Assembly (NCBI GenBank): GCA_026770705.1
Contig: JANJGN010000001.1
Span: 194,184,001 to 194,248,000 of the forward strand
Reading direction: 5' to 3'
DNA length: 64,000 nucleotides
From: Isurus oxyrinchus
Lineage: Eukaryota
Within the stretch, counting starts at the first letter, position 1. Each line of letters begins with the position of its first letter. Shown in pieces: positions 141 through 54,665 of this stretch. The notes under the pieces are model-generated. The model was given only the letters and a program-made list of their open reading frames with translations. It did no database searches and had not been told where the DNA came from. The position numbers were made by a program, and so were the translations under genes.

Positions 141-236
141 GTCTGTGGAAGGGTCATGAGGACTCGAAACGTCAACTCTTTTCTTCTCCACCGATGCTGC
201 CAGACCTGCTGAATTTTTCCAGGTAATTCTGTTTTC
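141..236 (+). mobile_element. Penelope-like terminal fragment with minimal hammerhead motif (CTGTGGA core)
   Basis: CTGTGGA-A-GGGTC-ATGAG-GACTC-GAAAC-GTC-AACTCT at 143-179, then a tail near-identical to copies at 42.3, 49.8, 54.1 and 54.5 kb. Confidence 0.7.
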
Positions 237-3186: not shown

Positions 3187-3285
3187 AATTCTGATGAAAG
3201 ATCATCGTCCTGAAACGTTAACTCTGCTTCTCTCTCTACAGATGCTACCTGAACTACTGAGTATTTCCAAAATTTTCTGTTTTTA
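3187..3285 (+). mobile_element. Penelope-like fragment with canonical-core minimal hammerhead
   Basis: CTGATGA (3191-3197)-A-AGATC-ATC-GTCCT-GAAAC-GTT-AACTCT, then an agatgct...ctgagtatttcc tail. Confidence 0.65.
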
Positions 3286-9548: not shown

Positions 9549-9752
9549 CAAAAGCAAAATACTGCAGATTCTGGAAATCTGAAATAAAAACTGAAGCTGC
9601 TGGAAATACTCAGTAGGTCTGACAGCATCTCTGAATAATATTTCAGGTTGATAAGCTTTCATCAGACTGTTCTGATGAAGGATCATTGACCTGAAACATG
9701 AAGTATGTTTTTCTCTCCACAGATGCTGAGTATTTCCAGCATTTTCTGTTTC
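9549..9752. mobile_element. Head-to-head inverted pair of Penelope-like hammerhead fragments
   Basis: CTGATGA core on - (9659-9665) and on + (9672-9678), 6 bp apart; arms are diverged reverse complements. Confidence 0.7.
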
Positions 9753-9918
9753 TCCCTAAGTTATTAGGGAAGGCCATTTAAGCAAACAGTATGAGGTTAA
9801 AGCACAATTTGATGCAATATTGAAGAGAGGTGCCTGACCTTTCTGTAATTTCTTTTCCTTGTAAAGTTTGGTCTACTTTGCTAATACCAGAATTTATTTT
9901 CTCTATCAATTTTATTAA

Positions 9919-10191
<273 letters not shown>

Positions 10192-10549
10192 TAGTCAATG
10201 TTTGAGGATTTGTTTTTGATTATGTGATAGTTGTTTCAAAACTTTTTAATTTTGTTGAGAAATGCCAACTGCTAATGAAATGTTATACTCTCTGAATACA
10301 TACTATGTGAATCGTTTTGCAATCTTACAGCTTTTCAAACTGAAAAAGTCAAACATATAAAGTGGTTATTAAATGCCAAAAAGAATGACCCATGTGGGAA
10401 AAAAAAACCGTCCACAAAGAAAACAGAGAAAGTGGTTATCACATCAACATATGTAAAGACATTTAGGCATAGAAGAAAATACTTGTTATACACTGATACA
10501 AGTCTATATGTTAAATTAGCTGAGTTTGTATCAAAATCATCTGACTAAA

Positions 10550-10855
10550 GAGAATCACACAGCCCAGAAACAGACTACTTGACCCATTATGCCAGCTCTT
10601 TGGAAGAGCTGTGTAGTTAGTCCCACTCCCCTGCTCTCTCCCCAATGTCCTGCACATTTCTCCTTTTTACACATTTATCAAATTTCCTTTTGTTTCCACC
10701 ATCCTTTAATGCAGTACATTCCAGATCATAATAACCTGCTAGGTACAAAAAAACCTCATTTCCTCCTGGTTCTTTTGCCACTTATCTTAGATCTGTGACT
10801 GTTGGTTACTGACCCTCCTGTGAGTGGAAGTTGTTTGTCAAATATTCATGATAAT
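10550..10855 (-). mobile_element. CR1-type LINE 3' fragment
   Basis: Reverse complement of the CR1 3' region/tail seen elsewhere in the window. Confidence 0.6.
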
Positions 10856-11507
10856 TACTAATGGGCCAAAACCTGTCTGTTTTATTAAAGTAATATTACA
10901 TCCTTTGTATCAGTCATTCCTGAAGTGGCTTCCTGATTATTTTTAAATCCTTGATCATGCATAGAAAATTATATTGGACTAATTTCCAAGGTGATCGGGT
11001 TGAGTCAGATCAAACAATCACACCTGAAGCCACTAATAATACAATTTGCCACAGTACAGATGCGAACGATTAAAACTACCCTATTAACATTCCAGGTGAT
11101 AATACAGTTGTACGGTCTGGTGAGCTTCACTTCTGCGCAGTGAAGCATGAAGATCGGATTGCTATCGAAATGTACACATGGATCATGCTGTACATTAATC
11201 AATTTATCTGGAACAAATAACAAATATATGGGAGTTGCCATGTTGTGCCACATCAAAACCAATGTAGCGTGGAACTGCTGATGGCTCAGTGTGAATGTAA
11301 AATTGAGCAGGGACTTGGATTCTTTCACTATACTATGCCACGTTAGCCCATCTCCATGGCAGTAGAGGGTATCTGTAGTTGGCCTCATAACCACTAAGTA
11401 AGGAAAGGCAAAAAAATTCAGCCATGAATACATCTACTGATTACTATCCAGTAACACTTGCTGGGTGATGTAGATGTTGATGGTGATAGAATTGAAATTA
11501 ACACAAT

Positions 11508-11635
11508 GGGTGGTATTTTCCAGCCCCGCCCACTGTTGGGATGGTCCAGTCTTGCCAAAAGTCAATGGATTTTTGGCTGGGCTGCCGGATCTCCTGAGGG
11601 GGGTCCTGTCACAATGGAGCTGGAAAATCTCAGCT
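11508..11635. mobile_element. Short MITE with 3-bp TSD (AAT)
   Basis: gggtggtattttccagcc ... gctggaaaatctcagct flanked by aat on both sides. Confidence 0.65.
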
Positions 11636-12119
11636 AATTTTTCTGCACCGTTAAACATGCTTCTGGAAATCACCATAAAGAATGATGACTTGGCCAAAGC
11701 ATTAGAGATTTATAGCAGTAACAGAGCTACACCTTAGCATGAGCCAGTATCTTCACTGATAGTAGGGAGAAAACTGTCATTCAGGTTTGTCAACAGAAAA
11801 CCAAAAACCAGCCTTTGTTTATATACGACCTTATTTCATGTCTCAGAAATACCTTCAATTTCTTCTGAGAAGTACATCGACTATTGTTATGCGATATGAT
11901 TAAACAATTGCAATATCAATTATAATTGTCACCCAACATTTATAACATTATTAAGAGAAGTTAACAACCGCCAGGGAACCACATTTCAGTGGCAAGTGGC
12001 TGTTTTCAGCTGTTTCGGTTGTTTTGCCAGGGCTTCTGTCAGTTCAGACCCATCAACTTGTGGAGGCTTACAGAAAGAGTCCATTCAGACCACCTGCTTC
12101 TGGAACAGAGGTGTTTTTA

Positions 12120-12498
12120 GTTATTCATTCATGCGATATGAACATCACTGGCACTGCCAGCATTTACTACCAATCCCTAATTGCTCTCTGAGTGGCTTTC
12201 TAGGCTATTCGGGGGCAGTTAAGAGTCAACACATTGCTGTGGGCCTGGAATCACTTGTAGACCAGACCTGGTAAGGGCAGCAGATTTCCTTCCCTAAAGG
12301 GCATTATGAATAATAAAAGGGAATTTTATGATAAGCTGGTTATTTCATGATCATTGTCGTGAATCTAGCATTTTACTCCATTAAATTGATTTTAAATGCC
12401 ACTAGCTGTCATGGTGGGATTTGAACTCATATCTCCTGAATATTAGTCCAGGCCCCTGGATTGTGAGCCCAGCAACATTACGATTATGCTACTGTCCC
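12120..12498 (-). mobile_element. tRNA-derived SINE with Deu-like core (SacSINE1-like)
   Basis: B box GAGTTCAAATCCC (12416-12428, -); core ccagacc..cacagcaatgtg.ttgactcttaactgccc; 3' tail shared with LINE family A. Confidence 0.75.
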
Positions 12499-12499
12499 C

Positions 12500-13155
12500 T
12501 ATCATCTTCTTCCAAGAGGTTGCAGATATCTGTAACTCGTTGCTTTGGAGACACTTCTGTTCAGAGACATCAAAGAAGCTGACCCTTAGCCTTTAGACCC
12601 TGTGATGAGGGTTTCGCCTCCTTCAAGGTGCAGCTCTGTGTCCAGCCCCTCTGTTCCACCCAGCCATGGAGAAACCAGCAGCTGTTGCTGTTGGGGTTGC
12701 TGCCCCTGTTGCTGTGGCTGCTAAGTTGGAGCAAGCTGCACCTCGTTCTCAGAAAAAGTACAGAAAACATGGCCCCCAGGGAGGCCTCACAGGCAATAAA
12801 CTGAAATTACCCTCAGTGGTATCCAGGGTACTTGATATAAGTGGCACAAAGTTGCTGTCCCTAACAAAATCAGTGAATTTAGACTGAAAGAATTGCCCCT
12901 TTCTGCACAAGCCTTTCACTGTGGCTGTCCTTTATAATGCTTATGCCAGGACAGTTTCACTCTGTAATGAGTTCCCCCGTGCACTCACCTTCTCCAATCT
13001 GGTGAGACGCAGATGCAGTGTGGAGCCTGTGCATTGTTAGGAAAGAGGGATTCCATGACTAAAAAGGCTCTTCATTGCTTTTAAAATTGCCTCAACTGAT
13101 TTCTCACCCGGTACACTCCAGAACCCACCTCTACCTGGCTGGGATAATTCTGCCC
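12500..13155 (-). mobile_element. Harbinger element end with degenerate transposase N-terminus
   Basis: TIR-like ataattctgccc at the right end; - strand RVSFFDVSEQKCL..VTDICNLLEED resembles the HARBI1-like N-terminus. Confidence 0.55.
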
Positions 13156-13534
13156 ATTGAAGCTGAGATTCTTGCACCTTTTTTTAAAAAAAAAGAATAG
13201 ATAAAAATTTTAATGTCTTTGAAAGAGCGTGTGGCGATCCAATTAGTTTTCTATTGCTTTAGCCCCGATAGTCAGATGATGTGCTGAATGGAGTCCTCCT
13301 GTATTGTAAGCCTCTACAGTTCGATGCCCCTGAATTGGAAGAAGCCCCGGAGAAACAGCATAAACAACTGAAAAGAGCCTTTCACACTGTTTGTCAGAGA
13401 ATTCTGCTGATAGCCCATCAAAGTTACAACTGGATAATCCCAATGGACTTTCAGAGTCATAAATTCTACATTGCAGTTTAGCACATTAGGAGAAAATAAG
13501 AAATCTACCACTTTAAGTGGTAGCAATTCAAACA

Positions 13535-13740
13535 GTAAATGTTGGAAATACTCAGCAGGTCTGGCAGCATCTGTGGAGAGAGAGAAACAGAGTTAACCTG
13601 TTTCAGGTTTCTTCAGAACTCCTTGAACTGAAACGTTAATTATTTTTCTCTCTCCAAAGATGCTGCCAGACCTGCTGAGTATTTCCTGCTTTTTCTGGGG
13701 TTTTTTTCAGATTTTCAACCTCTGGAGTATTTTGCTTTTG
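13535..13740. mobile_element. Head-to-head inverted Penelope-like fragments next to a splice acceptor
   Basis: ggaaatactcagcaggtctggcagcatct and agatgctgccagacctgctgagtatttcc are perfect reverse complements; CTGAAGA core on - at 13610-13616. Confidence 0.75.
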
Positions 13741-13775
13741 TCCAATTAACACAGTGTTTCTTCTCTCACTACCAG

Positions 13776-13950
13776 GTAGAAACAATCGGAGATGCCTATA
13801 TGGTTGTGTCCGGGCTCCCAGTACGGAATGGCAAACTCCACGCACGGGAGACCGCCAGAATGTCCTTAGCATTACTGGAAGCAGTCAAATCATTTAAAAT
13901 ACGACACAGGCCCAATGACCAGCTGAAGCTAAGAATAGGAATCCACACTG
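13776..13950 (+). CDS. NPR2: NPR2/GC-B-like exon (175 bp)
   Basis: accag|[58 protein letters not shown](G)|gtaaat; contains the GTP-specifying Glu and second metal Asp. Confidence 0.95.
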
Positions 13951-15781
13951 GTAAATTATCTTCATTCAAGTCACAGATCTCTGTGGGGAATATTCAAATT
14001 TTCTTGATAGATTTCACTGTCCAGTTGGGTTGAATGGGAACAAAATTTCACCCAAACAATTCCTAACACCTGGGTTCAAATTGCGCAGAAGTTGCACTTT
14101 TGCTCTCTGGTTATAATTAATATTCACCTGGAGGAGCACTGCACCATAATGATTAGGAAGATCCAAGTCTGTGTTGCCTTAACTGATCTTAGCAGGAGGA
14201 AACACTAAGGGAATACAATATGTCTAGGAATGGGAAAACAATCAGCCAGCATCCCTCTCCTGTAAAGATTCACATATATAAAATGGGCATTTCGGTGAGG
14301 TGCCAAAGGACTGCAAGCACCTATAAAACTCTGCTCCAAAATAAATCAGTGCCTTTAGGAAAGAAGCAAACTAGATTTTTTTTAAAATCCTGCTGATGTG
14401 AATAAAACATTTTCATTGCAGCCAAGTGTAGACACCTAACTGAAGAATATTTAGTTATGAAGATAGCTTCAGAGTTAGGGCTGTTTACTTCAGTGAATTA
14501 AAGGCAGAGAGTGGATCCAATGGAGGCTTTAAAAACAATAATGGATTAGACATATTTTATGACATGGAGAGGGACTGTATGGATAAAGAGAATATGTAAG
14601 CAAAGTGCTAGATTCAATGGCAGGAACTAATCACGCTCTGGAGTAGACTGATGGAATATGTGATGTGTAAACATTGCTGCAGCCTTTTAAAATACAACTT
14701 TTCAAGTTCCTGAAAGCAGGAAACATTTTATTTATAAATGAGAAATTGTTAATTAGCTGGGATTATGTGGGGTTATAGACTACTAGCCTCAAGCTTTGTT
14801 TGCTTGCATTGGGGAATTGGAGAGCAGTTCCCAGTGTTCATCCTACATTGGTCATGAGTGTTTGCTCTGCTTTCATCTCTTCCAGAACCTACTAGGATTT
14901 TTGGGCTTGAGGGGTGATGTAAGTGGTTGTGCTGTGTCCAAGTGAAGTGCACTTGATGGGCTTGATAGTCTTTTTCTGCACTTATTTTCAACTGATAATA
15001 TGAAATAACATTGAGGCATTTTCCATAATAACCTTTAATGCAGACATTAGCACAGACATGAGTGAGCACAGCAGTTTTCCATTGCCAACTGCTGCCCTTT
15101 CGAGGCCTTTCTGCTGCTGGTCAGCTATGTGTGCCTGCCAGCAGCTCTTTCAGTCCTTTGTCAGCTCTGCTTTATATCTTTCGTAATCTTGTTATATCCT
15201 ATTTCTATCACTTGAAATACTTCTGTGCTTCAGACCTTGCTTCATTTGTAGCTTGGAGCCCACTCAGTGACACTGAAACAACTCTAAATGCCAGCGAGGG
15301 CCAAAAGTGTTAAAACTGCATGAGTGATGTGGGTGGTGACAGAGTGGCCAGAATAAAATGGTGGACCCGACATCAGCACGGTTTACTGTTACTCTCAGAA
15401 GCAGGCAGCAAAACCATCTGCTGAACTGAGTCTCAATGTCTTCAGAGACACATGTGCATTCTTATTTATGTGCTGCACTAGATCCAAAGGCAATTCTACA
15501 TTTAAAGGCAGTATTATGGTATAAATGTGGTACAAAGCTTCAGTTTCACCTGGGGATTGAATTAATTTTTACTTTGCAACGTGGAATTAGGAAAACTGTG
15601 AGCAAGCAAATGTGCATAATGGAGTTACTTGAGAAGAAAGAAGACCTTCTAAATGATATATGGGTCGTCACTGTTCCAAATGGATTACAGCAAAAAGCTT
15701 ATTGTTGAGTATTAAAGCTTAAATGTTATGTATGATTAAGAAATAATTAGGAAACCTTTTTCTTTTTCTACCTACGATCAG

Positions 15782-15880
15782 GACCAGTGTGTGCAGGAGT
15801 TGTTGGATTAAAAATGCCACGTTACTGTCTATTTGGAGACACGGTTAATACAGCCTCCCGTATGGAATCTACTGGAGAGG
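15782..15880 (+). CDS. NPR2: NPR2/GC-B-like exon (99 bp)
   Basis: atcag|(G)[32 protein letters not shown](A)|gtaagt; guanylyl cyclase signature. Confidence 0.96.
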
Positions 15881-16123
15881 GTAAGTGGCTGCTTTAAGAA
15901 AGAAAATATGAAATCAAGTTCTGCATTGATACCTTCTTTTATACACCGAAAACTTAAATTATTTTATATATAGCAAATGAAAGGTAGAAGTATGCTATAA
16001 TGAAATGTTGCTTGTGGCATCTAAATATTATAAAGAGAATTTCATTGCATCCAAGCTATTTTTGTCAGCCTGACTGTATTAGGACTTTGATATCTTTCCA
16101 TTCTGAAGGAAGTTTGATTCCAA

Positions 16124-17002
16124 CAGAGATTAAATGCAGCTGATTTTTTACTGAGTTGGTTTACTCCTGCAGGAAGTACAATATAATAGGTGATTTGATT
16201 GATGTTTTTAAGATATTAAAGGGAAGTGAAATGGGAGATAGAGAGAAACTATTTCTTGTGGCTGGGGACTCTAGACTAGGAGACAGAGCCTAAATACCAG
16301 ATCCAGACCTTTCAAGAGTAAAATTACTTCTACACACAAAAGTGGGGTAGAAGTTTGGAACTCTCCTCCATAAATGGCAATTGATGCTGGATCATTTGTT
16401 AATTTTAAATCTGAGATTAATAGATTTATGTTAATAAAAGTTATTAAGGGATATGCAACCAAGTTAATGAAGTCAGTGAAGACAATGGTGTTAGGTCACA
16501 GAGAGACTCAAGGGCCTAAATGGCCTACTTTTGTACATATATACTTGTAACCCTCTACCAATCCCTCCATGTTTACAATCACATAGCCATTTTAACCTTC
16601 TCCAGCCCTACTCATTTCCTGTGTCCCACGCAATCTCAACACTTGCCTACTGTGCATTGCATCCTGCTTCATCTATACTGTAGAACATCCAGTCATCTTT
16701 CCCTCAGGCTCTGTGGCTGTCTTCCTTAAACCCATCCACCTCACCACATTGCTCCTCTAAAAGCCTCCTTTTATTGCATGCAGTAATATTTCCTAACTTT
16801 ACTGCTGAAAGGCCTGGCTCTAGTTTTTAAGCTATATCCCCTAGGCCCAGAATCCAAAACCAGTGGAAATAGTTACTCTTTATCTAGCCTTTCAGTTCCT
16901 TTTAACACCATGAAACCTTCAATCATCCACAAATCACCCATATGTTTTACTTCCTGCAGGAGTAAAGCAATTCCATTAAAAATCAGCTGTGTTTAGTCAC
17001 TG
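16124..17002. repeat. Diverged inverted duplication containing a CR1 3' fragment
   Basis: 16124-16330 is the reverse-complement homolog of ~16795-17002; perfect 19-mer tttactcctgcaggaagta at 16160-16178 and 16948-16966. Confidence 0.7.
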
Positions 17003-18846
17003 TCCTTTCAACTGCTGTCATGCCTCAGGATTTTTTGGCCATTTTTCTGCAGCAAGAATTTCCAAATGAGCTCTATTTAAGTGCTGAAAATATAGGAAAC
17101 ACTCAGCAGGTCATGCAGCATCGGTGGAGATGCTTTTACGTTTAAATGCCATGTTTTCAATTAAAATGGTTCGCAAAGGGCTGGAATTCTCCTTACTATC
17201 ATATACTGGAGCCACTGAGACAAAAGAGAAGATTCTGAGCAGAATTTCCTTGGAGCTGCTCATTCTCCGTCACTCCAGCGAAGCTATCATGGTGGCATGA
17301 AAATAGGTCTGACCAGCGTGTGTCGGCATTGAAGATGTATTTACACAACATCTGAGGATAACAGTTCACTTGTTATCTCAGCTCAGTCTCCTATTTACAC
17401 TGGACCCAAGAGAAATGTGTTATTTTCCGAGACTTCGATTAATTCCATTCCCCCTCCCTCTCTATAACACCCCCCAGTCCCTGCCCAACTGTGAAGTGCT
17501 TTGGGGCAGTTAGCTATGTTATGCAGGTCGTCGTTCATTATAGCTTCAGCCTGCTCCCATTTTTCCAGCAGAGGGTTACAAGGCATGCTTCTGCCCCAAG
17601 TTAGTGGTGAGACACTTCACTATAATTAATTTGTGTGCACTTGGTGCAATTGGGAGCCTGATTTCAACTTTACTGTTGTTGGTTAAGCTTCTTAGGGTTT
17701 AGGAAACTCAGCAGCAAAATGGAGACTGGAGCAGCCAGCTGCAGAAGGCAAGTGCTATTTCTAGCCACCGCTTGTGAGCCAGCAGCAGAACTGCCTTCCC
17801 ACCTCCTTGACCCCTCAAGCAAACCTTCTGCCAATCCCAGCCTCTCCCTACTGCTATGACATGCTGACCTCCCCATCAACCTGCAATCCCAAGCCACTGG
17901 CCAAACCCTACCCCACCCAACCATACCCCGGAGCCCCCAGCCCCCTCAACTTCCCACTTCAACCTGTAACCTTTCCCTCCTTCCCAGTTGCTGCACCGGC
18001 CCCTGTCTCTCATCTGAGATCTTCCCTGATTGCTGTGGATCAACCACAATGGTGCTCAGCTGCGGCTTTCTGTCACTGGCTTTCCACTTTGCAGCCGGCC
18101 AGATTGTCAGTCTGGCCAGCATCCAGGCAGGAAACAGAGTGAAAAAAAAACAGATAATGAGGCCCGGACGTTACATTTGGCAGGACCTCCATGTCGCTAG
18201 GATTTCTTGGTTTCCTCCCCACCCCGACCCCACTACTGCTCTCTCACAGTCTCTCTTCCCTTCCCTGTATATATCGGAGCCTTTCCATCTATTTGTGTAA
18301 CATTGCTGCAGGAGTGCAGCAGAAAGGATCTCTCCCATGTGAATTTATATCCTATCGATTGGCCCCAAAGAGCATTGTTACTGTTCTATGCGCCTTGCAG
18401 CAAGTAGATGAAAAGAAATCACACATCACAGATTTAAGCAGTGTGCAAATTTATGAACAATTTTTTCTGTAATAGGAGTCAGAAGAAAAACTTCTAAGGA
18501 AAGCAATCATTTTATATTTAAATGTGTTAGCACTTATATTTGTAACATTCTTTGGACCAATTTACAAGCTACAAACAGATATTAGGACAGCCTGTCCTAG
18601 AATTTGACTTTGAGTTCTATACCCCTGATATTCAATCTTCAACTTTATGTGGCTGCAAGAGCCTTCTGAGGCTGAATAACAATTCAAGCTAAGTTAAAAC
18701 CTTAAGCTAAACAGTCCCTGAAATTAGAACCATATCAAGAATTTGGCAGTAAAATTTAATGCTCAAGAGTCAATTTAAAGAAAATTCAGTCTAAATATAT
18801 GCCTGTCTTCATCCTGCCATTGACATTTTACCTCTTGATTTGTTAG

Positions 18847-18938
18847 CACTGAAAATCCACGTGTCCTCAACGACCAAGAATGTCTTGGATGAGTTCGGAA
18901 ATTTTGAACTGGAGCTCCGTGGCGATGTTGAAATGAAG
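18847..18938 (+). CDS. NPR2: NPR2/GC-B-like exon (92 bp)
   Basis: tgttag|(A)[30 protein letters not shown]|gtacct; HVSSTTK is NPR2-like rather than NPR1-like. Confidence 0.94.
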
Positions 18939-19024
18939 GTACCTTTATGTTTCAAGATATGTTCAACACATCCCAACCACAATCATGAATGACAGTTATG
19001 GAAGTCCTTATTGCTGTTTTTACA

Positions 19025-19640
19025 AATCATAGAAACTTGCAGTTCGAAGGAGGCCATTCAGCCCATTGTGCCTGTACTGGCTCTTTGAAAGAGCAGCCTT
19101 GCCGAGTCCCACATCCCCATATTCTGTCTGCAGCCCTGTAAGTTTCTCATCCTCAAGACCAACTCCCTTTTAAACTTCCATAACCTTTTCAGGTAGAGAG
19201 TTCCAGATCCCAACAACTCTGAGTCAAAAGTTTTCTCCTCATATTCCCTTCAGATCTTTTGCCAATGATTCTGAATCTATGGTCTTTAGTTGTTGACCCA
19301 CTCACTAGAGGGTATAGATCTCCTCTGCCTACTATACCAAAACCTTTCCTCATTTTTAAAGCCAGTTAGGTCACCTCACAACATTCTCTGAAAGGAGAAT
19401 ATGCCAAACGTTGCCAACCTCTCCTCATATCTGAAATTCCTTTGCCCCAGTGACATCCTGGTAATCCCCCTTTACACTGTTTCTAAGGTCTTCACATCCT
19501 TTGTGAAACATGGTTCCCAGAATTGACCAGGATATTCTAGCTGAGGGTGGTGATTTCTCTTCACTTTTGCATTCGATTCCTCTTTTTAAAAACCCAAGTG
19601 CCCTATAAGCTTTTATAAACCACCTTATTAACTTATTCTT
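19025..19640 (-). mobile_element. CR1-type LINE 3' fragment
   Basis: aggaggccattcagccc (reverse of the CR1 tail hairpin) followed by degenerate RT C-terminal sequence. Confidence 0.7.
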
Positions 19641-21880
19641 TATTTATTCCAGAATTTGTTAAATGTTTAAAGATTTAAGATAATAAATTTTGTTGGGTTC
19701 ACGGTGAGGGAGGACAGAGTTCTGGCAAAATTAAATTGCAGCAGAGGAGCTGGAACATTCTGTGGCATACTTGATTATTCCCTTGATACAGTGCTACCTG
19801 CTCCTTTGTTTAAATGATCCGATGCCTGAGATTTGGAATTGATAAACTGTCAAGTCAGAATGCTGGACAGGACCTTGCAACACTGGCACTAAATATTTAT
19901 CCTTTATCCCCAAAATGCCCAGTAATACCACTGAGCTTCCCACATTGGCATAGGCCTCCTCCCCAGTGCGAGTGAAATATTGACGGGGCAGGATGAGGCC
20001 CTTAACTGAGCATTAATCTGCTTCTTAAAGGCCCCAATAGGCCATCTGATTCCTCCCCCACCCCCTTAAAATTTCAGACAGGTGTTGGGGGGGGGTGGGT
20101 GGTTAGGTGGCGAGAAGGCCATCGGCTGGATTTTATTTGTCTCCCGTCTTCAAACCCTCTGATGGGAGAGCGTAAAATTCAGTCCTATGTAGAGTGAAAC
20201 CAATTGTAACATGCCTATTACCACCCTGTATGAGATCGTCTAACCTTTTAGGACATTCTTGATCTACATGGTTCAGTTAGCCATTTCTTAATCAGCTGAA
20301 TCATTGGGGAAAACTACTTCCAGTTTTGTTTTGGGATTGACTGGCTTTTTTTACTGGTTTTGCAATGAATGCATTCTTCATATCTATTAATATTTTCCTT
20401 CATTCTCCAGTCTAGCTTCTAGGTTGTAATATTTTTATTCTGTGCTCGCAATCTAATTAAATTGTTTGCTTGCACTTGTGTCATCCGTATCTCTCACATT
20501 TTAAAATTCTGGGGTTATGTCTCTTCTCAATCTTCTTTCTGCAATGAAATGAAATCCTGTCCTACTCTAGGACAGAATTGTTTCTGCCTGACTTGCAGAT
20601 AAATTGATCCACTCCTACACAGTTGCTGCGGGCTAAATAGGTCTTCCCAACTATTGATAGAGAAAAAAAGGAAAATAATAGGAGATGGGAATCAGAAAAG
20701 AAAAAAAGCAGTAAAAAATTGTTCCTTTCTACTATTTATAATAACAATAATTTATAATAATATTAATGCAACCGCATTTTGAATGACTGCACAAAGACCA
20801 AGGTTAGAGAAGCATTCCAACTGCTTCATATGTCATCCTTGACAGATAAGTTTATGATGGTTGAATGAGCAAGATGGTTCACTTGGTTCCAAAGCAAACT
20901 GAACCACTTGCATCAAATCTAAGCAAGCAACATGCACATTCAGGTTAACGGCCAATCTCACCAATATAGAAAAATCACATCAATTGACATTTTTGAAAAA
21001 TATAATTAAACCCACATGTGAAACAGACTGTTTTGCATTTCCATTCAGAAGTGATATGTGTGCAAATTGATAATTTGAACTGCTAAGATCCTCATGGATT
21101 CCTTCAGCTCACGGCTGTAATAAAGTGTTGGCTCAGTTCCCAGTTTCCATTTTGCTATTACGGATAAACAGCTGACTCAAAATCAATGCAGCTAATCGGA
21201 GTGCACTCCATTTATACTTTCTCAAATACATTATACTAATGTGGAAGAGTTCAGGTTTAGGCATTTTTATATCCAATGTATTCAGATGCTTTCAAACAAG
21301 CCTTAAAGACAAATGTCAAACAGTTAGGAATAGTAACATGACGTAAGGATTACTGTAAAAAAGCAGGACACAAAAATCTGACCAATGTTCTCGTGAACCA
21401 TTTAAATTGGCAGGTACAGCTACAGTTCATTAATTTAAAGGAACAAAATGTGCTGCTATTTTGTTTACCCACAATAGCAGTTCCCATGAGTTCATCAGTG
21501 TGAATATTCAACAACGCTGATGTACCCTTCACTTCAAATTGCATTTAGGCATTTTGTGGAAAGTTTGAAAAATTTTGGCTTAGCTGAGACTCATGTTCTG
21601 GCTGAAAAGATGGTTTGAGCTAAACATCATTAGCTTATATTATATTATATTAGTTCTATGACATGTTAGGCATTAATTTATCAGACACACATTAAAAACA
21701 TCACTTATTTTGATTGTTATATTTGGTATACATACAATATTTATTTCTCCATAATCAAGGGAGTTGGATACATAAATATGGTGCTAATGGCTAGGATTTT
21801 ACCAGCCCCCAGATGGTGGGCGGGGAGGTGAGGGGAGTGGTGGGGGTAAGTAAAATCATGGGGTGCAGCATTGGCAAACG

Positions 21881-22508
21881 ACTAGCCATATGAATACTGT
21901 GGCTACAAGAGTAGGCCAAAGGCTAGGAATCCTGTGGTGAGTAACTCATCTCCTGACTTCCCAAAGTCTGTCCACCATCTACAAGGCACAAGTCAAGAGA
22001 GTGATGGAATACTCTTCACTTGCCTGGATGAGTGCAGCTCCAACACCCAAAAAGCTTGACACCATCCAGAACAAAGTAGCCCTCTTGATTGGCACCCCAT
22101 CCACAGACATTCACTTCCTCCACCACCGACGAACAGTGGCGGTAATATGTACCATCTACAAGATGCACTGCAGAAACTCACCAAGCCTCCTTAGACAACA
22201 CCTTCCAAACCCACGACCACTACCATCTAGAAGGAGAAGGGCAGCAGACAGATGGGAACACCACGACCTGGAAGTTCCCCTCAAAGTCACTCACCTTCCT
22301 GACTTGGAAATATATCGCTGTTCCTTCACTGTCGTTGGGTCAAAATCCTGGGACTCCTCCCTAACAGCATTGTGGCTGTACCTACACCACATGGACTGCA
22401 GCAGTTCAAAAAGGCAGCTCATCATTACCTTCTCAAGAGCAATTAGGGATGGGCGATAAATGCTGGCCAGCGATTTCCACATCCCGTGAATTCATTTTGA
22501 AAAAAAAG
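21881..22508 (+). mobile_element. LINE family A 3' fragment
   Basis: MEYSSLAWMSAAPTPKKLDTIQNK peptide; same 3' tail as 1051-2549. Confidence 0.85.
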
Positions 22509-23018
22509 GATCTTGTTGGGACATTTGACTGGCAGCAGGACTGGAACTGGAGAGGCACACAGCCAATTATCTTCATTAAAGGCCCAATTGGGGGTCATTT
22601 TAATTCTGCAATCAGTATTTTGCCATTTGTGGGGCAACCCCCTGCCACATGGGGTTGGCTGCCAGCTAAATGGAGGAAGTCTCCTGGCAACAGGTGACAG
22701 CCTACAATACAAAAGGGCTCCTAATTTGGCAATGTCACTCAGAAATGTCACAGTATGGCTGGTGTGAGAAGTGGTAAAAATATTACACTGATGTAGCAAA
22801 TGGTACTCTCCTGACTTGAGAGTTAAGGCATGTTGTAGGGGCAGAGTTGGGAGTGCTTTACTCTCCACTATACCTGACCTGCATTAAACTAATGCTGATG
22901 CTTGATGCCTGAAATGGGAAGAATTCCATTCCTAATGGAAAGGTCCCTCACCATGATGAGCACAAAGTGCATTTAAAGAAATGGCTTAGATACTTAATGG
23001 CACCTTGTTAGTTTTTGT

Positions 23019-23680
23019 AGAACATAGAAGCAGAAGTAGGCCATTCAGTCCCTCGAGCCTGTTCTGCCATTCATAGAGATCATGGCTGATCTGTATCATA
23101 ACTCCTTCTATCTGATTTGGTTCCATATCCTTTTATGTCCTTGTCTATCAAATATCTTTGACTTCAGATTTTAAATTATTAATTGAGTTAGTATCTATTG
23201 TTTTTCATGTGGGAGAGATTTTCCTAACCTCACTTTTAAATGGACTGGCTCTGATTTTGCACAAGTGTCCCGTTGTCCTCGACACCCCAACAGCAGAAAG
23301 AGTTTCTTTCTAGCTACCCCATCAACTCCTTTCAAAATTTCATTCAAATCCCACTATGACCTTCCATATTCTAGGGAATACATGTAATCTCACCCCATAA
23401 TCTGACTGTTGTAGCCCTGGTGATGTTCTGGAAAATTTGCAATGAACTCCTTCCAAGGTCCATATATCCCCTTTGGGAAGCAGTGCTGAGAACTGTAGAC
23501 AGTACTTCAAAGACTGGTTGAGAAACTTCCTCCCTTTTACTATTCTATCCCTCTAGATATAAAGGCTAACATTCCATTAACTTTTTTGATTTTTTAAATC
23601 TGACTGCTACATTAGTGATCTGTGTACATGAACCTATTAACCTCTTTGAGCTGCTATTGTTCCTAACTTTTCACCATTTA
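23019..23680 (-). mobile_element. CR1-type LINE 3' fragment
   Basis: agaacatagaagcagaagtaggccattc (reverse CR1 tail) plus degenerate body. Confidence 0.7.
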
Positions 23681-24422
23681 AATGAAGCTTCCAATATAGC
23701 AGTAATTAAGTGTTGGACATGCATTTCCCACCATATAGGTAGAGGCAAACTAGTAAGCCCACAACAGAAAAGGCAATGCAATTTATGCATACTTAAATAA
23801 GGAGCTGAATTCAGGAAAACCAGGTCTGCATGAGGCCTAGCCAATGTAGCACCACCAAAAAGGTAAGTTTTAAAACAATGCTTACTGAATGTGGAGCTAG
23901 GAGGAGTGGGAGTGCTGCTCCCATCTCCATTGCATTGCTGCAGATCATTGTCCCCCAGTCCTTCATTGCCCCACTTCTTTCACTTTCCTTCCAGGCCATC
24001 TTTCCTTTCCCTTTAAGCACTTACCAGAGGTGGGTGCCATGTATGCCAACAGGTTATTGAATTATGGAGGCCATCACTGCTAAATCTTGTCTTTGGTTAG
24101 CTTCCACATGGGCACTTTTCAACAGAAGCTATCAATTAGCATTTTGTAGTAGGAACCCTGCCTTACTTCTCCTCAGCCTTTCTTGTTTCACAGGACTGAG
24201 ATCAGTTCCGGTGTCCATACATGCTGCTTTAGTTGAGGAAAGCTAACTATGCAAATCCAAGGAATCAAATCTGAAACTATTCTTGTCAATATGGTTCAGT
24301 GCAGTCATCAAGCAAGCCAATGGGAGAAATAGTGCCCATACTTCTTCTAAAGACTAGCAAATGTTTAAGGATTTACAATGGCGTGAGCACCTGAGTAACA
24401 TTTATTTTGTCTTCTTTGAAAG

Positions 24423-24485
24423 GGCAAAGGCAAATTGAGGACCTACTGGCTGCTTGGTGAGCAAAAAGATGTTCCCGACATCTAA
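24423..24485 (+). CDS. NPR2: NPR2/GC-B-like terminal coding exon with stop
   Basis: ctttgaaag|GKGKLRTYWLLGEQKDVPDI*TAA; in frame with the preceding ...VEMK. Confidence 0.94.
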   Translation, partial: GKGKLRTYWLLGEQKDVPDI

Positions 24486-40679: not shown

Positions 40680-42600
40680 AAGCATGTAGCTCTTGCTTTC
40701 TCCACCTACCCTCACCACAGCCCTGCCCTTATGCCTTCTGCTTTCAGATGCCCAAGAACACTATCCTCATCAGGCTGTGGTGGAGAGCATCAGATGGATG
40801 AGCATGAACACAGGTATAATTCAGAAACACTATTATTCAATTTCACATGTGCAGTCACCAGCTCAAATAATGCAAGTACTTCAGACATAGCTTTGAGGCA
40901 AGGTAGGCAGGTGGTGAGACACTGGGTATGAGTGACCCGCAGCCAGGTGAGGCTTCAAGGATAGCACAGGTGCCCACTCATTGGAGGACTAAACTGTACA
41001 TGAATTCCACTGCAGAGGACTCAGGTGAACATGATAGGGTGTATACAGAATAAGTATGCAAGCTGAAATGGTTGGTGCGCTGGCAGCCTGACATAAAGCC
41101 TGCATGCAGTGTCAAGGACCATGGAAGAATCCAGCATCAACTTAGCATAGAGCTTTGCACAGTGCCTGGAAGCTACCCTTTCCAGCATAGAAATGGAGAC
41201 CAATTCTGTTAGTACACTTGTGAACCCAACCATGATGTAGTGTCTGATGGGTAATGTCTCAGCTTCCATTGCAACACAAGCAGAAGCCACCCAACAATTG
41301 GGTCGTGCAGTAGAAGCTCATATTTCTCATGCAATGTTAACTCGTTGCCATGCAAGCTCAGGCTGTTGCCATTGTGCTGCAGATAGCAATGTTCATAGGT
41401 GTATACAGAATCTTACAGTAGTCCATCAGTGTGACCACCAACAGGTTAATGGATTCCTGAGGCTCTGCCCTTGGGGAGTGGCAGCAACTCTGTGGAGAAA
41501 AAACTTGCTTTCATCTTCCTGGATGACAATATTCTTCCTCCCATTGCTGCCAAACTGCCAGCGCCCCTGCTCTGGCTAGTCAGCCAGCCAACCCAGAGTG
41601 CTGCCCATACTGAGTAGGTGCAGCCTAAAGCCAGGTCTACTCTGCTCAGGGCTGCTTGAGGTCATCCTGCAAAGCCATCGACAGTTTCCTCCAGTTAGTG
41701 TCAATACTGTTCCAAAGCCATGCTGCAACCACTGGGGGAGAACTGTTTTGGAACAATTGGACAGGCAAAGGCACACAGAGAATAGGCTCTAAGAAGATGC
41801 ACAAGGGGAATGTTGATATGCAATGTGGTATGTTTGATTTATACATTTGGAATGGTTATTTTTTTGATGACTTTTATTTTTGCATTGTAACCAAGCTGAT
41901 ACTGTGATGGTCAGCAACAGATGGAAGATAATGTGTAGGACAATGGGGAATTATGGTTACATTTGCTGGTATCAGGTAAATTGTTCATGGGCCATCTGGC
42001 CAGAAAGCTGTTCATGGGTCGTGCACAAGATTCAGCAATTGTGTGGTCAGATGATAATCCTGGTTACCCATTGTTGTTTGCTGGGGTGGCTTAAATGCAG
42101 AAGGCACAGCAGCCACAGAATGGAGGTATCATGATGGCTGCTAGGATACAGGGCATTGATCTGCATGCATCACTGCATTTGGTCTCACACCAGCTGGAGA
42201 TTGAGGGAGTAGACCCTTTTTCTATTTGTGGTGGCCAGTAGCAGCGTATGTGCCATCAATGGCAGCCTGCACCATGGGGAAGCCTGCAATCCTCACAAAC
42301 CCACATGCCTGCTCCACCTGCTCAGTTGCGTTGAAGGGTCATGAGGACTCGAAACGTCAACTCTTTTCTTCTCCACCGATGCTGCCAGACCTGCTGAGTT
42401 TTTCCAGGTAATTCTGTTTTTGTTTTGCCTGCTCCACCTGTTGCTCTCTGGCCAAAGAGAACAAAATATCAACTCTCTTTAAATAGAGAGTGTCAGTGAC
42501 GTTCCTTACAGTGAAAGACAAACTACAAGATGTTCAACTGCCTCCAGCTCCAGCCTAGAAAGAACCCAATGCATCACTGATGTCTCCTTCACAGCCACTG
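40680..42600. mobile_element. Old Harbinger remnant (Myb-partner 3' part on +, transposase fragments on -)
   Basis: Similarity to 3040-3640; - strand GFPMVQAAIDGTY..RKRVYSLNLQLV resembles the HARBI1 FP.V.GAIDCTH..RKG..SLNVQ motif. Confidence 0.6.
42321..42426 (+). mobile_element. ~105-bp Penelope-like hammerhead module with 14-15-bp TSD
   Basis: Flanked by (t)gcctgctccacctg at 42306-42320 and 42426-42440. Confidence 0.85.
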
Positions 42601-47472: not shown

Positions 47473-49658
47473 TGTGATGAACCCCAAAGTGAAAAAAAAC
47501 TTACCCTTCTAAATCGGAGTTCGGAGGCTGAAAACTCCAGTTCCCAATGGGCCTCTGGGTTTCTGCGCACATGCAGCTTTAGAGTGGCGGCACACGTGCA
47601 GTCTGTGTTTTTTTCCGGCCTCCGAGTTTTCTGCACATGCACTGGCCAAAGAATGACACACAGGGAGAAGGTCACAAACAAATAAGAAGGTCCCAAACCG
47701 GCGAGTGGGATAGAAAGCGGTCCCAAGTAGACAGTCTAGTTAAGGGACAAGGAAAGGAATCTGAAACAGGTCCTGTTAAGTGAAGTAAAAAGTAAGAAGC
47801 AGAAGAAAAGCCTCCAGATTAAAGAGACAGAGCTGCAAGGAGCAGACTTGGAATTAAGTGGGCTTGAGAGAAGCCAGAAGATCCAAGGAGACAGATGAAA
47901 GTTGGTGACTCTTTACTACGGGCCTTTGGAATGTGGTGTTCTGCTTGGCACAGCCAAAAATCTGACAGCGTGCATGGAAGATGAAGCTTGAATGCATCCA
48001 GAGGAAAGGAGCATCAGAAAGAGAGATTGAAATCCTGGAAGTTGATCCTAATTGAAGATATCCGAGTGATAGCCTCGTTTGGGAAAGAATGTCAAGGTGA
48101 ATTCCTCAAGCATGGAAATTGGAACCCCGCTTAAGAAAGACAGAGGGAGAAATTTGTTGTTGGATGTCATGGCAGGTGCGAGCGGACAATATGGAGAGAA
48201 GGCCAAAAATCGGTTCCACAACATCGTGAAACAAGTTTGCAATTGTCCACTCTGCCCATCAATGGCAGGCGGCATTTCCCACCGCCGGACATCGGGAAAG
48301 TCATTTTAATACATCTGTATGCCATTATTAGCCCAGCTCACCAGCTCCCCACGCTGGATCATCCGGGCACGCCAACATGTTTCACAACAGCGTTTCAAAG
48401 GCTTGCACTGAGCGAGAAGAACTTTGTGGGGAATTCAGAGGTGAGTGCTCAGTAACATTATGCAGTGCTCGTGAGGTTTGCCCGTTTGACTTCAAGGTTG
48501 AGGCGCCACAAATTCAAGTGAGGGCGCAGGCAAGTGGCCTATTCCCAGCTGGCTGAATGTTTCCCAGTGTTGTGCCAGGGCAAGGGCTGCAGTGCAGGTA
48601 TGGCGAGTTGCGGGGTCGAGGCAGCATGCTGTGAGGCAGGTTGGGAGGGGGGAGTGCAAGGGCTGCACTGCATCTGAGGCCAATTGCAGGGGCAAGGCAG
48701 TGCAGTCTGATGGTAGTGCACAAGCACTACAGTTTTCAAGGGGTGGGGGGGGGTGGTGGGGGGGTTGGTGGGGGGTGGGGGAGGTGGCAGGGAGGGAAGC
48801 AGCCACACAGTAGGGATACCTTGGAGGGACATTTTTTAAATGAAGCCTCCACACTGTCCGCACTCTTTTTTAAAAATTAAGTCTCCACACTGAGGATGTG
48901 GCTGCTGACACTCAAGCGGCGGCCTCAGATTGCAACAAGAGAAGGTAAAATGAGGGTCATGCTGCAACTCACACTTTGGTGGAACAAACCACTGGGATGT
49001 TGAAAATGAGGTTCTGCTGCCTGGACTGATTTGGTGGGGCCCTGCAACACAGTGCACAGAGGGTATCATACATCACTGTCACCTGCTACACCCTTCACAA
49101 CCTGGCATTACAACAGAGAGAGGAGCCATTTGAGGAGGAGATGCAGGAGCTGGAGGTCTCCTCCAATGAGGAGGACATTAACGGGGATGAGGGTGAGGAG
49201 GTCCTCGATGGTGAGGATGATGCCAATGAAGCCATTGTACTACCCAGGTGTGGCAGGTGCGTCCGGGAGCTCCTATTTGTGGAAGTTGATGATGATATGC
49301 AGTGAGGAGGCTCAATAAGTCCTCACAATGCATCTGACAATGTTTGACTCCAGTCTGGCTTATGGCATCACACATACCCTCTGTGATAACGGCCCCATCA
49401 TGGAGACACAGCAATTGCCCATAGTTCTTGCATTTCAGGAGGATGATGATGACATGCAACAGGGACACTCCATAGATCCTCACACAGCTCATGTGAATGT
49501 CTGACTCCTGTCTGGCTGATGGCAGCTCACTTGTGCTCTGTGAACAGGGTCATATCATGGAGATGCAGCAGGAAATTTCAACTTCTCCTGATCCTATGGC
49601 ATCCTTCATGAGCTGAACACTTCAGGACCACACTGTCACCTGGCACAGATGTTGATGA

Positions 49659-50427
49659 TAAAAACAAAAAACTGCGGATGCTGGAAATCCAAAACAAAAA
49701 CAGAATTACCTGGAAAAACTCAGCAGGTCTGGCAGCATCGGCGGAGAAGAGTTGAAGTTTCAAGTCCTCATGACCCTTCCACAGAACTGCGTAGAGTTCT
49801 GTCGAAGGGTCATGAGGACTCGAAACGTCAACTCTTTTCTTCTTCGCCGATGCTGCCAGACCTGCTGAGTTTTTCCAGGTAATTCTGGTTTTGTTTTGGA
49901 TTTTCAGCATCCTCAGTTTTTTGTTTTTATCTCTGTGATTCTCCTTCCGATGGATACTCGAAGGCTCCTCACTGACCCCTTTTGGAGAAGGGGAAGTTAG
50001 AGTGAGATTGTGTTGTCTCACACCCCTCTCATGTCTACACTGTTGGAGGCCAACTATGGCGTCAGTGATGAAGTTCAGCCTGTGCAATAGTGCACTGATG
50101 TCCTGGACCAAGGTTCTCCATGGTGGCCGCCATCCTACTAGTGGTGGCCTTGGTGCATTGCATGATGGTGCGATCATTTTGGACTGAAAGCAGGCGAACT
50201 CCTCCACAATGCCTAGCAATCTGAGGACTGCAGTTGTCATCCCTTCCTGCTTTGTTTAAAATTAATTCACGGGATGTGAGCATCACTGGCTGGACCAGTA
50301 TTTATTGCCCATCCCTAGTTGCCCTTGAGAAGGTGGCGGTAAGTGGCCTTTTTGAACTGCTGCAGTCCATGCGCTGCCACTCCTCTTCAAGAAATGCCTA
50401 CCTTGAAGAAGTTTTGTTCCTCTCTGC
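49659..50427. mobile_element. Penelope-like palindromic hammerhead insertion with 15-bp TSD and a captured local segment
   Basis: TSD cacagatgttgatga at 49644-49658 and 50428-50442; ~130-bp inverted arms around 49789-49794. Confidence 0.85.
49793..49835 (+). ncRNA. Putative minimal type-I hammerhead ribozyme, A6U core variant
   Basis: AGAGTT-CTGTCGA-A-GGGTC-ATGAG-GACTC-GAAAC-GTC-AACTCT: 6-bp stem I, 5-bp stem II, palindromic ACGT stem III; activity untested. Confidence 0.55.
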
Positions 50428-51407
50428 CACAGATGTTGATGAGATGGGGGGGCCAGCCACACCTCAGAGATGCAAAGAGCTCACACAGAGAGAATGACAG
50501 ACTCTGTGCCGCCGGCCCAAGACATTCTGGCAGCAATGATAAGCCCCATCAAGGTGCAGGCATGACTGATGTGTCCAGTGACTGTGAAGGCGCACCATCA
50601 GTGTGTTGGGAAGGCTGCACAAAGCACAGGGAAGAAGCCCTGGACTGGGACACCTGCCTTTATCTAGTGCAGGGTCCATGGTTTCATGTCAGAGTGCCAC
50701 AAATACTGTTCATCAGTACAAGGAGCCATAGGCAAGGAGAAATTCTTGGGAGCTTATTTACAAGTGATTAACTCCCGTGCCCAGGCTGTGCAACCACATC
50801 TTCTTAAACTTCCTTGCCTTCCTATGTCTTGGTGTTCCCCGGACATCCACAATGGAATTGGAGGCCGCCTGCTGACTGTGACGCCCCGTCTGTGATGACC
50901 TTGGCGGGCATCTTCTGAAGGGCTGAAGCCTGGAGGGCCCCAGCCTGCTTTCGGTGCCCTGTTATGTGACAGTGGCACCCTTTTCAGCCTGTGAAGCTGG
51001 AGCTGCTGGCATCACAGGAAGAGGGGATTCGGATGAATTTGAATGGGCTGGACACTCTCTGAGTCACCTGAATGGATGGCCCTGTGATGTGTACCTGCTG
51101 ATTCTCCTTCCTATGGATACTTGAAGGCTCCTGACTGACCCCTTTTGGAGAAGGGGAAGTTAGAGTGAGATTGTGTTGCCTTACACCCCTCTCATGTCTA
51201 CACTGTTGGAGGCCAACTATGGCGATGAAGTTCAGCCTGTGCAATAGTGCACTGATGTCCTGGACCAAGGTTCTCCATGGTGGCTGCCATCCTACTAGTG
51301 GTGACCTTGGTGCATTGCATGATGGTGCGATCACTTCGGACTGAAAGCAGGCGGACTCCTCCATCATGCCTAGCAATCTGAGGACTGCAGTTGTCATCCC
51401 TTTCTGC

Positions 51408-53864
51408 TTTGTTTAAAATTAATTCACGGGATGTGGGCATCACTGGCTGGACCAGCATTTATTGCCCATCCCTAATTGCCCTTGAGAAGGTGGCGGTGAG
51501 TGGCCTTTTTGAACCGCTGTAGTCCATGTGTTGTAGGTACACCCTCAGTGCTGTTAGGGAGGGAGTTCCAGGATTTTGACCTAACGACAGTGAAGGAATG
51601 GCGATATATTTCCAAGTCAGGATGGTGAGTGACTTGGGCGGGGGGACTTCCAGGTGGTCGTGTTCCCATCTATCTGCTTCCCTTGTCCTTCTAGATGGTA
51701 GTGGTCATGGTTTTGGAAGATGCTGTCAAAGGAGCCATGGTGAATTCTTGCAGTGCATCTCGTAGATGGTACACACTGCGCTACTGTGCGTTGGTGGTGG
51801 AGGGAATGAATGTTTGTGAAAGTGGTGCTAATCAAAAAGACTGCTTTCTCCTGAACAGTGTCAAGCTTCTTGAGTGTTGTAGGAGCTGCACTCAGCCAGG
51901 CAAGTGGGGAGTATTCCATCACACTGCTGGATTGTGTCCTGTAGATGGTGGATAGGCTTTGGGGAGTCAGGAGGTGAGTCACTCATCACTGGCCAGTCCA
52001 GTTCAGTTTCTAGTTGATGGTAATCCCCAGGATGTTGATAGTGGGGGATTCAGCGAAGGTAGTGCCATTGAATGTCAAGGGGTGATGGTTGGATTCTCTC
52101 TTGTTGGAGATGGTCATTGCCGGACACTTGTATGGCGTGAATGTTACTTGCCACTTGTCAACCCAAACCTGGATACTGTCCAGGTCTTGCTGCATTTGGA
52201 CATGGGCTGCTTCAGTATCTGAGGAGATGGGAATGATGCTTAACATTGTGCAATCATCAGTGAGCATCTCCACTTCTGACTGGAGCTGAGATGACTGACC
52301 TCCAACAACCACAACCATCTTCCTTTGTGCTAGGTATGACTCCAACCAGTGGACCATTTTCCCCCTGATTCCCATTGATTCCCGTTTTTCTAGGGCTCCT
52401 TGATGCCACACTGTCAAATGCAGCCGTGATGTCAAGGGAAGTCATTCTCACCTCACCTCGGGAGTTCAGCTCTTTTGTCCATGTTTGAACAAAGACCGTA
52501 ATGAGAACTGAGTGGCCCTGGAGCAACTCAATCTGGGCATCAGTGTTGATGGCCCCTTCCATTACTTTACTGATGATCAAGAGTAGACTGATGGGTCTGT
52601 AATTGGCCGCATTTTACCTGTCCAGCTTTTTGAGTACAGGACACACCTGGGCAATTTTCCACATAGCCGGGTAGATGCCACTGTTGAAGCTGTGCTCAAA
52701 CAGCTTGGCTAGGGGCCTGGCAAGTCCTGGAGCACAAGTCTTCAGTATTATTGCCAAAACATTTTCAGGGCCCACAGCCTTTGCAGTATCCAATGCCTTC
52801 TGCCATTTCTTGATATCAGATGGAGTGAATCGAATTGGCTGAAAACTGCCATCTGTAATGCTGGGGAACATCCACTCAGCACTTCTGGCTGAAGACTTAG
52901 CAAATGCTTCAGTCTTATCTTTTGCGCTGATGTGCTGGGCTCCTTCATCATTGAGGATGCGGATATCTGTGGAGCCTCCTCCTCCAGTGGGTTGTTTAAT
53001 TGTCCACCACCATTTATGAACGGATGTTGCAGGACTGCAGAGCTTAGATTTGATCTGTTGGCTGTGGGATCATTTAGCACTGTCTATCACTTGCTACTTA
53101 TGCTTTTTGGCATGCAAGTCGTCCTGTGTTATTGCTTCACCAGGTTGATAACTCATTTTTAGGTATGCCTGGTGCTGCTCTTGCACTCTTCATTGAACCA
53201 GGGTTGATTCCTTGGCTTGATGGTAATGTTGGAATGGGAGATATGTCAGGCCATGAGTTTACAGATTGTGTTTGAGTACAATTCTGCTGCTACTGATGAC
53301 CCACAGCGGCTCATGGATGCCCAGTCCTGAGTTGCTAGATCTTTTCAAAATCTATCCCATTTAGCACGGTGGTAGTGCCACACAACACAATGGAGCGTAT
53401 CCTCAATGTGAAGGCCGGACTCCAACTCCGCAACAACTGTATGGTGGTCACTCCTACCAATACAGTCATGGTCAGATGCATCTGTGGCAGGCAGGTTGAT
53501 GAGAATGATGCCAAGCATGTTTTTCCCTCTTGTTGGTTCCATCACTACCTGCCGCAGACCCAGTCTAGCAGATTTAGGACTTGGTCAGTAGTGGTGCTAC
53601 CGAGCCATTCTTGGCGATGTACTTTCAAGTCCCCCACAATGGAAAATTCTGTGCAATTGCTGCCCTGAGTGCTTCCTCCAAGTGATGTTCAACATGGAGG
53701 AGCACTGATTCATCAGCTGAGGGAGGGTGGTATGTGGTAGGAGGGTTGCATGTCCATGTTTGACCTGATGCCATGAGACTCCTTAGGGTCAGGTATCGAT
53801 GTTGAGGGCTCCCAGGGCAACTCGCTCCTGACTATATACCACTGTGCCACCACCTCTGCTGGGT
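51408..53864 (-). mobile_element. LINE family A, long degenerate copy with APE endonuclease and RT remnants
   Basis: EPTRGKNML..IGRSDHHTV (endonuclease), WKIAQVCPV, LTDDC; family A 3' tail at ~51410-51490. Confidence 0.9.
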
Positions 53865-54665
53865 CTACGACAAGATTTCCGTATCTCTCTTTTGCCTTGC
53901 TCACCTTCATTGCTTTCCATTTCTCTCCTGGTGTTTGACATCTTTTGATGATCTGCTTCTATCACTGCTTGTTTGTCCCTACAACCACACCAACCCCCTC
54001 CACTTCTCTCCCCCCACCCAAACCACCCCCACCCCCCACAAACCTTAAACCAGCTTATATTTCACCTCTTCCTTGGATTCACTCAGTTCTGTTGAAGGGT
54101 CATGAGGACTCGAAACGTCAACTCTTTTCTTCTCCGCTGATGCTGCCAGACCTGCTGAGTTTTTCCAGGTAATTCTGTTTTTGTTTTGGATTTCCAGCAT
54201 CCGCAGTTTTTTTGTTTTTATCTCTGTGTTTAATTGACTGCCACTGCTCTTCAAGAAATGCCTACCTTGAAGAAGATTTGTTCGTCTCTGCGACAAGATT
54301 TCCGTATCTCTCTTTTGCCTTGTTCACCTTCATTGCTTTCCATTTCTCTCCTGGTGTTTGACATCTTTTGATGATCTGCTTCTATCACTGCTTGTTTGTC
54401 CCTACAACCACACCAACCCCCTCCACTTCTCTCCCCCGACCCAAACCCACCCCCCCCCCCCCCCCACCTCACCCCACACACCTTAAACCAGCTTATATTT
54501 CACCCCTTCCTTGGATTAACTCAGTTCTGTTGAAAGGTCATGAGGACTCGAAACGTCAACTCTTTTCTTCTCCGCCGATGCTGCCAGATCTGCTGAATTT
54601 TTCCAGGTAATTCTGTTTTCATTTTGGATTTCCAGCATCTGCAGTTTTTTTGTTTTTAGTCTGTG
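53865..54665 (+). repeat. Tandem (~1.9 units, 423-438 bp) Penelope-derived hammerhead-bearing repeat
   Basis: Units start at 53865 and 54288; CTGTTGA cores at 54089 and 54527; near-identical apart from a C-rich tract. Confidence 0.85.

Follow-up and report, generated by a model that had tools for sequence, protein, structure and literature searches.

The hammerhead-like motif at positions 49793..49835 (+) of the 64,000-nucleotide stretch of Isurus oxyrinchus DNA analysed here (the window) is, by its sequence, a minimal type I hammerhead fold in which U replaces A at position 6 throughout the subfamily. The best explanation, to which we give a probability of about 0.6, is that it is an attenuated hammerhead whose self-cleavage is likely slow or negligible, carried by a lineage which amplified without needing efficient cutting. 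The original prediction proposed either a natural active core variant or a lineage amplified after loss or attenuation of self-cleavage; this framing is kept, and the evidence leans to amplification after attenuation, the active branch being less favoured.

The motif and its copies in the window

The two strands of stem I of the motif are at 49793-49798 and 49830-49835, and the core at 49799-49805 has T49802 at position 6 and C49803 at position 7. It is followed by an extra A (49806), by stem II (49807-49811 with 49817-49821) and by GAAA (49822-49825). The hammerhead consensus places the predicted cut after C49829.

Six young copies are present in the window, with the cores CTGTGGA (143, +), GCGTTGA (42328, +), CTGTGGA (49784, -), CTGTCGA (49799, +) and CTGTTGA (54089 and 54527, both +). 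All eleven of the 7-mers cited in the original prediction, which include those of older relatives, are found where it had placed them. Its two main observations are also confirmed: position 6 is T in 6/6 young copies and A in none, while position 7, which is the free position of the hammerhead, reads G, T, G, C, T and T in the order given above. The six copies correspond to four insertions, since 49784 and 49799 are the arms of a palindrome and 54089 and 54527 are units of a tandem. They differ from their own majority at only 17 of 606 sites (2.8%), and the T in all six therefore reflects shared descent and not six independent observations.

The rest of the core is mostly canonical. C3 U4 G5 and G8 A9 are present in five of the six copies, the exception being 42328, where C3 and U4 are also altered. 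The extra A between A9 and 10.1, the GAAA and the NUH triplet occur in all six, and the ACGT palindrome (15.2-16.2) in five; the copy at 49784 (-) carries TTC instead of GTC, which keeps U16.1 and C17 and loses the palindrome. The closing pair of helix II (10.1-11.1) is G-C in four copies, G-U in one and an A-C mismatch, at the base of stem II, in 54527. GTC is kept in five of the six, as the original prediction stated. Helix I has 4 bp in four copies, 6 bp in one and 1 bp in copy 143. The 6-bp stem I reported for the 49.8-kb copy is real, but two of its pairs are owed to the 6-nt spacer (49789..49794) that separates the two arms, and the perfect stem is particular to that copy.

A relaxed minimal-hammerhead pattern was used, in which positions 6 and 7 are free, stem II has at least 4 bp, GAAA and NUH are required and stem I has at least 3 bp. 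It matches three sites of the window (49784, -; 49799, +; 54089, +), all of them young copies, and has 0 matches in 100/100 dinucleotide-matched controls, so that the motif is not a chance occurrence. Half of the young copies therefore still fit the pattern, and the other three are damaged outside position 6.

Older relatives with an A6 core do exist where they had been described. They comprise a copy at 3187..3282 (+), whose core is canonical and whose stem II has decayed, a decayed palindromic pair at 9550..9751 (cores at 9665, -, and 9672, +), and a second palindromic pair at 13533..13742, whose A6 core at 13616 (-) has lost most of stem II. All of them are decayed, and none passes the relaxed pattern.

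The host element and its locus

The motif stands at the head of a repeat some 140 nt long. The original prediction had left the element unnamed; its layout makes it likely that the repeat is a pseudo-LTR belonging to a Penelope-like retroelement. The marks described for endonuclease-bearing (EN+) Penelope-like elements are tandems that are partial, an inverted copy truncated at its 5' end and a tail on one side (10.1101/2021.04.23.441226). Each of these hallmarks is seen here: a partial tandem that forms pseudo-LTRs (53864-54665), an inverted copy (49657-49788) and a tail on one side only (50374-50427). The assignment is made by layout: the 64-kb stretch contains no reverse transcriptase or endonuclease domain, and a search from the ORF stub found no protein with reverse transcriptase or GIY-YIG domains.

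The insertion which carries the motif (49657-50427) consists of two head-to-head copies, a copy of neighbouring DNA and the tail, all enclosed between 15-bp direct repeats. The left arm (49657..49788, -) is an inverted pseudo-LTR with its CTGTGGA core at 49784-49778, and the right arm (49795..49937, +) is a pseudo-LTR which contains the motif. At 49936..50371 (+), a 436-column copy, 94% identical, of the neighbouring DNA at 51099-51528 is found. The tail (50374..50427, +) reaches into the start of the element's ORF and matches 54238-54295 at 93%, and the target-site duplication lies at 49644..49658 and 50428..50442 (+). The presence of neighbouring DNA inside the target duplication looks like local template switching during insertion.

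The partial tandem at 53864..54665 (+) belongs to an internally deleted element with a period of 438 nt and cores at 54089 and 54527, and its unit includes the start of an ORF; the size of this unit is retrozyme-like. The ORF-start stub (54258..54368, +; 45 residues) is 89-91% identical to part of an uncharacterized protein of the horn shark Heterodontus francisci, which has no Pfam domains, and has two further weak, unnamed matches. A search for a full-length protein relative of the element found none (the Atlas model has a pLDDT of 0.34). The other young copies are a solo pseudo-LTR fragment with the core GCGTTGA (42321..42427, +), which is flanked by a 15-bp direct repeat at 42306 and 42426, and a truncated copy with the core CTGTGGA and a broken stem I (142..235, +).

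A pyrimidine-rich run ending in CAG (54054-54086) overlaps the 5' strand of stem I and is a candidate splice acceptor. In the Penelope element of D. virilis, the end of the intron falls at the corresponding place (PMC4209133).

The window also contains the last six coding exons of the natriuretic peptide receptor 2 gene (5573-24482, +); the exon that was tested has 98% identity with proteins of sharks and about 90% with those of other vertebrates, which marks the DNA as that of a shark. The 9.6- and 13.6-kb copies are inside introns of this gene, as probably are those at 143 and 3191, and the copies at 42-54 kb lie beyond its last coding exon. Two more inverted-repeat pairs, at 11998-13379 and 16123-17003, have arms of 63-77 nt which are 74-83% complementary and are probably old DNA-transposon remnants.

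Family-wide composition of the core

The letters of the family were tallied in run X1, in which 104,257 contigs align to 54040-54240. The shares are by summed contig depth and not by copies; they come from 40 of the 101 variants, of which the smallest is at 2.66%, so that the remaining ones are taken to be lower. Three raw-read runs gave 4, 0 and 0 aligned reads on the same interval, and the shares rest on X1, a run that may be from a species other than that of the window. The depth at the core is about half of that further in. Sequences of the older A6 families are cut off in the alignment ahead of the core (loose ends at 54131), so that the tally covers the U6 subfamily only.

In X1, position 6 is T at about 95% and C at 5.1%. 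No A appears at this position among the listed variants, which places it below about 2.7% among the contigs spanning the core, so that the proposal of a subfamily with a fixed U6, for which an A6 majority was the stated counter-evidence, is upheld for the U6 subfamily. Since A6 occurs in neither the six young copies nor more than this small share of X1, the motif is a derived variant and not a canonical member of the minimal hammerheads. The C at position 6 (54092) exceeds most other T>C shares and possibly marks a minor C6 lineage.

Position 7 is T at about 52%, C at 42.5% and G at 5.0%. CpG decay amounts to 7.7-10.7% elsewhere in X1 and to 7.7-9.9% at the other CpGs of the motif, which makes T at position 7 about five times more frequent than expected from post-insertion decay. 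The C/T split therefore comes from the source elements, and the variability claimed for this position is more than CpG decay would give. Among the listed variants, position 7 is the sole strongly split site of the 39-nt motif, and none affects G8, which belongs to the same CpG (below about 2.7%). Splits above 20% number four in the 45 nt upstream and none in the 99 nt downstream, again among the listed variants; 54138 was left out of the latter, as the change there belongs to the reference copy.

In X1, the depth rises about 20-fold at 54082-54109, on the 5' border of stem I, and shows no step at the predicted cut (54119/54120), contigs being a blunt tool that cannot show RNA ends, and the copies thus do not look like products of 5' ends made by cleavage. 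The place of the rise is also where the window copies at 142, 42321, 49788 and 49795 begin.

All or part of the stretch is contained in 20 of 24 listed runs from 11 studies, of which the DNA-type ones carry two organism labels; under the second label the family is contained at 0.80-0.82 (word content). The word content is 0.52-0.66 in four presumed RNA runs and 0.32 and 0.11 in two metatranscriptomes; these values are not taken as a measure of expression.

Conservation of the core

Position 7 provides only weak evidence for selection on a working core, because its variation is mostly one C/T split at a CpG. This split is probably a single CpG-type change in one source element. Since a hammerhead would tolerate change at one or two of the six motif CpGs, we infer that a single change would fall on a tolerated one by coincidence in about 1 in 6 to 1 in 3 cases.

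Judged from the sequences, the conservation of the motif does not exceed that of the remaining pseudo-LTR: compared with the older family, 1 of 11 core sites and 11 of 55 downstream sites have changed (P = 0.32). Stem II differs from that of the older family by changes which keep the pairs (A-U to G-C and G-C to G-U), but these may be older than the appearance of U6. The check on stem covariation suggested in the original prediction shows no excess in the 11 window copies, where stem II does not beat shuffles (103/500). Predicted folding gives no consistent effect of the letter at position 6, as the two contexts disagree: the probability of stem II is 0.07 with A6 and 0.58 with U6 in the context of 54089, versus 0.99 with A6 and 0.97 with U6 in that of 49799.

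Comparison with known hammerheads and Penelope elements

The minimal hammerheads of metazoan Penelope elements (PMC4209133) share with the shark motif the short helix I, the extra nucleotide after A9, the G10.1-C11.1 pair, the GAAA, the palindromic 15.2-16.2, the NUH and the absence of helix III. They occupy the same place in the pseudo-LTR, and their copies are also mostly solo, truncated or inverted. The difference lies at position 6: the 56 representatives in Fig. S3 of that paper, none from a cartilaginous fish, all have A6, whereas the shark family has U6, although the search pattern used there demanded A6. These minimal hammerheads show no activity in monomeric form and weak activity in dimers (PMC4209133).

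The natural A6C hammerhead of Bcep176 (PMC3088659; PMC7151607) is likewise a change at position 6 in an otherwise intact core. It is, however, a C at a single phage locus which has been assayed, while the shark variant is a U in a very abundant vertebrate retroelement and is known from sequence alone. The A6C ribozyme is slow in Mg2+ and better in Mn2+ (PMC3088659; PMC7151607): it cleaves at less than 0.1 per min (PMC3088659), has a preference for Mn2+ and shows hardly any cleavage while it is being transcribed (PMC7151607). In a type III hammerhead of which all single and double mutants were assayed, changes in the CUGA region gave low activity, except for a C3/G8 swap (PMC9901934). A numerical rate for A6U was not found in the parts of the literature examined, including this mutant scan, and the accessible part of PMC12192606 contains nothing on position-6 variants beyond A6C. 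Our search, mostly of openly accessible literature, found no paper on a natural A6U hammerhead, and nothing on a U6 motif in the literature on sharks or Penelope elements.

The Poseidon element PAc of Anolis carolinensis (PMC11167929) also has a hammerhead near the start of its ORF and a tail reaching into this ORF; in the shark element, the probable ORF start is about 140 nt past the predicted cut. The PAc hammerhead has been tested, and it cleaves only with the element's protein (PMC11167929). Cleavage-dead mutants of this element insert in vitro, and zero RNA-seq reads end at its cut site (PMC11167929). The Naiad and Chlamys elements spread without a hammerhead, and the role of the hammerhead in endonuclease-bearing Penelope elements has been called unclear (10.1101/2021.04.23.441226).

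The 54-kb locus also resembles non-LTR retrozymes (bioRxiv 10.64898/2026.07.22.740005) in being a short non-coding tandem with two hammerhead-like motifs 438 nt apart. That study, however, counts as retrozymes those tandems in which two or more successive units each have a complete motif, whereas both cores of the 54-kb locus are U6, the second motif (54527) has a mismatch in stem II, and the unit retains ORF remnants. One cartilaginous fish was included in this preprint, which used canonical and minimal models.

Proposed origin and possible activity of the U6 motif

The course of events that we favour is the following. A6U would have been fixed in a source element before amplification and would have strongly lowered the putative self-cleavage. 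Several source lineages, differing at position 7 (C or T, and little G) and upstream, would then have spread. cDNA synthesis would begin in the tail, close to where the ORF starts, and would frequently halt or fold back on reaching the 5' end of the motif, generating the solo and palindromic copies. The loss of rate would have been tolerated because insertion begins in the tail and has no need for cut RNA, which would have allowed the lineage to amplify. The rest of the motif may persist by recent common descent, possibly with a non-catalytic role in the pseudo-LTR in addition.

The most serious competitor of this scheme, which we consider possible but clearly less probable, is that the core with U6 is a natural variant which works, slowly on its own and at a useful rate as a dimer or with the element's protein, and which selection has kept. 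Indeed, the remaining core letters, the extra A, G10.1-C11.1, the ACGT palindrome and the NUH are retained in the majority, only position 7 is split into large lineages while the other CpGs of the motif decay by 7.7-9.9%, and stem II has changed in a pair-keeping manner. The possible C6 lineage (5.1%) parallels the sole natural position-6 variant known to cut. Protein-assisted cleavage has been demonstrated for the Anolis element (PMC11167929), and by analogy the U6 element may not be bound by the low rates of RNA without protein. On the other hand, the downstream pseudo-LTR is just as uniform, the restriction of the split to a tolerated CpG could be a coincidence at the odds given above, X1 has no step at the predicted cut, and the Penelope representatives of Fig. 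S3 (PMC4209133) all have A6, even if the pattern required it. A more elaborate form of the same idea is no less tentative: the natural A6U motif would still cut via a dimer or a protein, and position 6 would be a repeatedly changed, rate-lowering switch (U6, minor C6) which times cleavage to retrotransposition.

It is rather unlikely that the U6 copies are passengers, moved by an autonomous A6 partner or cut in trans in a mixed dimer. The 54-kb unit is internally deleted and has an ORF stub only, as expected of a non-autonomous copy, and stem I and the ACGT palindrome are common to the older A6 family, so that mixed dimers are possible on paper. Against this stand the low share of A6 (below about 2.7%) in the X1 contigs that span the core and the decay of the A6 copies of the window.

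That the variation at position 7 results from post-insertion CpG decay only, the motif being a fully dead relic, is improbable. In its favour, C7 and G8 together form a CpG, position 7 reads G in one arm and C in the other of a single insertion, and CpG sites are mutated more often than others in the six young copies (5/48 versus 2.2%). The share of T at position 7 in X1 is nevertheless far above that of decay at the other CpGs, which contradicts this explanation for the C/T difference.

Least credible of all is that the hairpin belongs to a microRNA precursor or resembles a hammerhead by chance: Rfam does place MIR7696 at 49756-49827 and has no hammerhead family among its four matches, but the hairpin is simply the two inverted arms, the controls are empty and the relatives bear a canonical core. 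Up to an E value of 1, no hammerhead family was matched in Rfam, and the microRNA candidates were rejected, as they score well below the gathering scores (45.9 and 42 versus 83 for MIR7696; 38.6 versus 73 for MIR1507). The motif pattern has 0 loci in metagenome contigs and 0 in viral contigs; one 22-nt match in a bacterial assembly, in a search of prokaryote genomes, was taken as chance.

Implications

A very abundant vertebrate family with an altered core letter constitutes a natural test of the role of the hammerhead in Penelope elements. If the U6 motif does cut, the rule for the hammerhead core widens, and searches with patterns in which A6 is fixed have missed whole families. If it does not, the family gives in vivo support to the idea that these elements can spread without cleavage, for which the basis so far is a single in vitro system together with the clades devoid of the motif.
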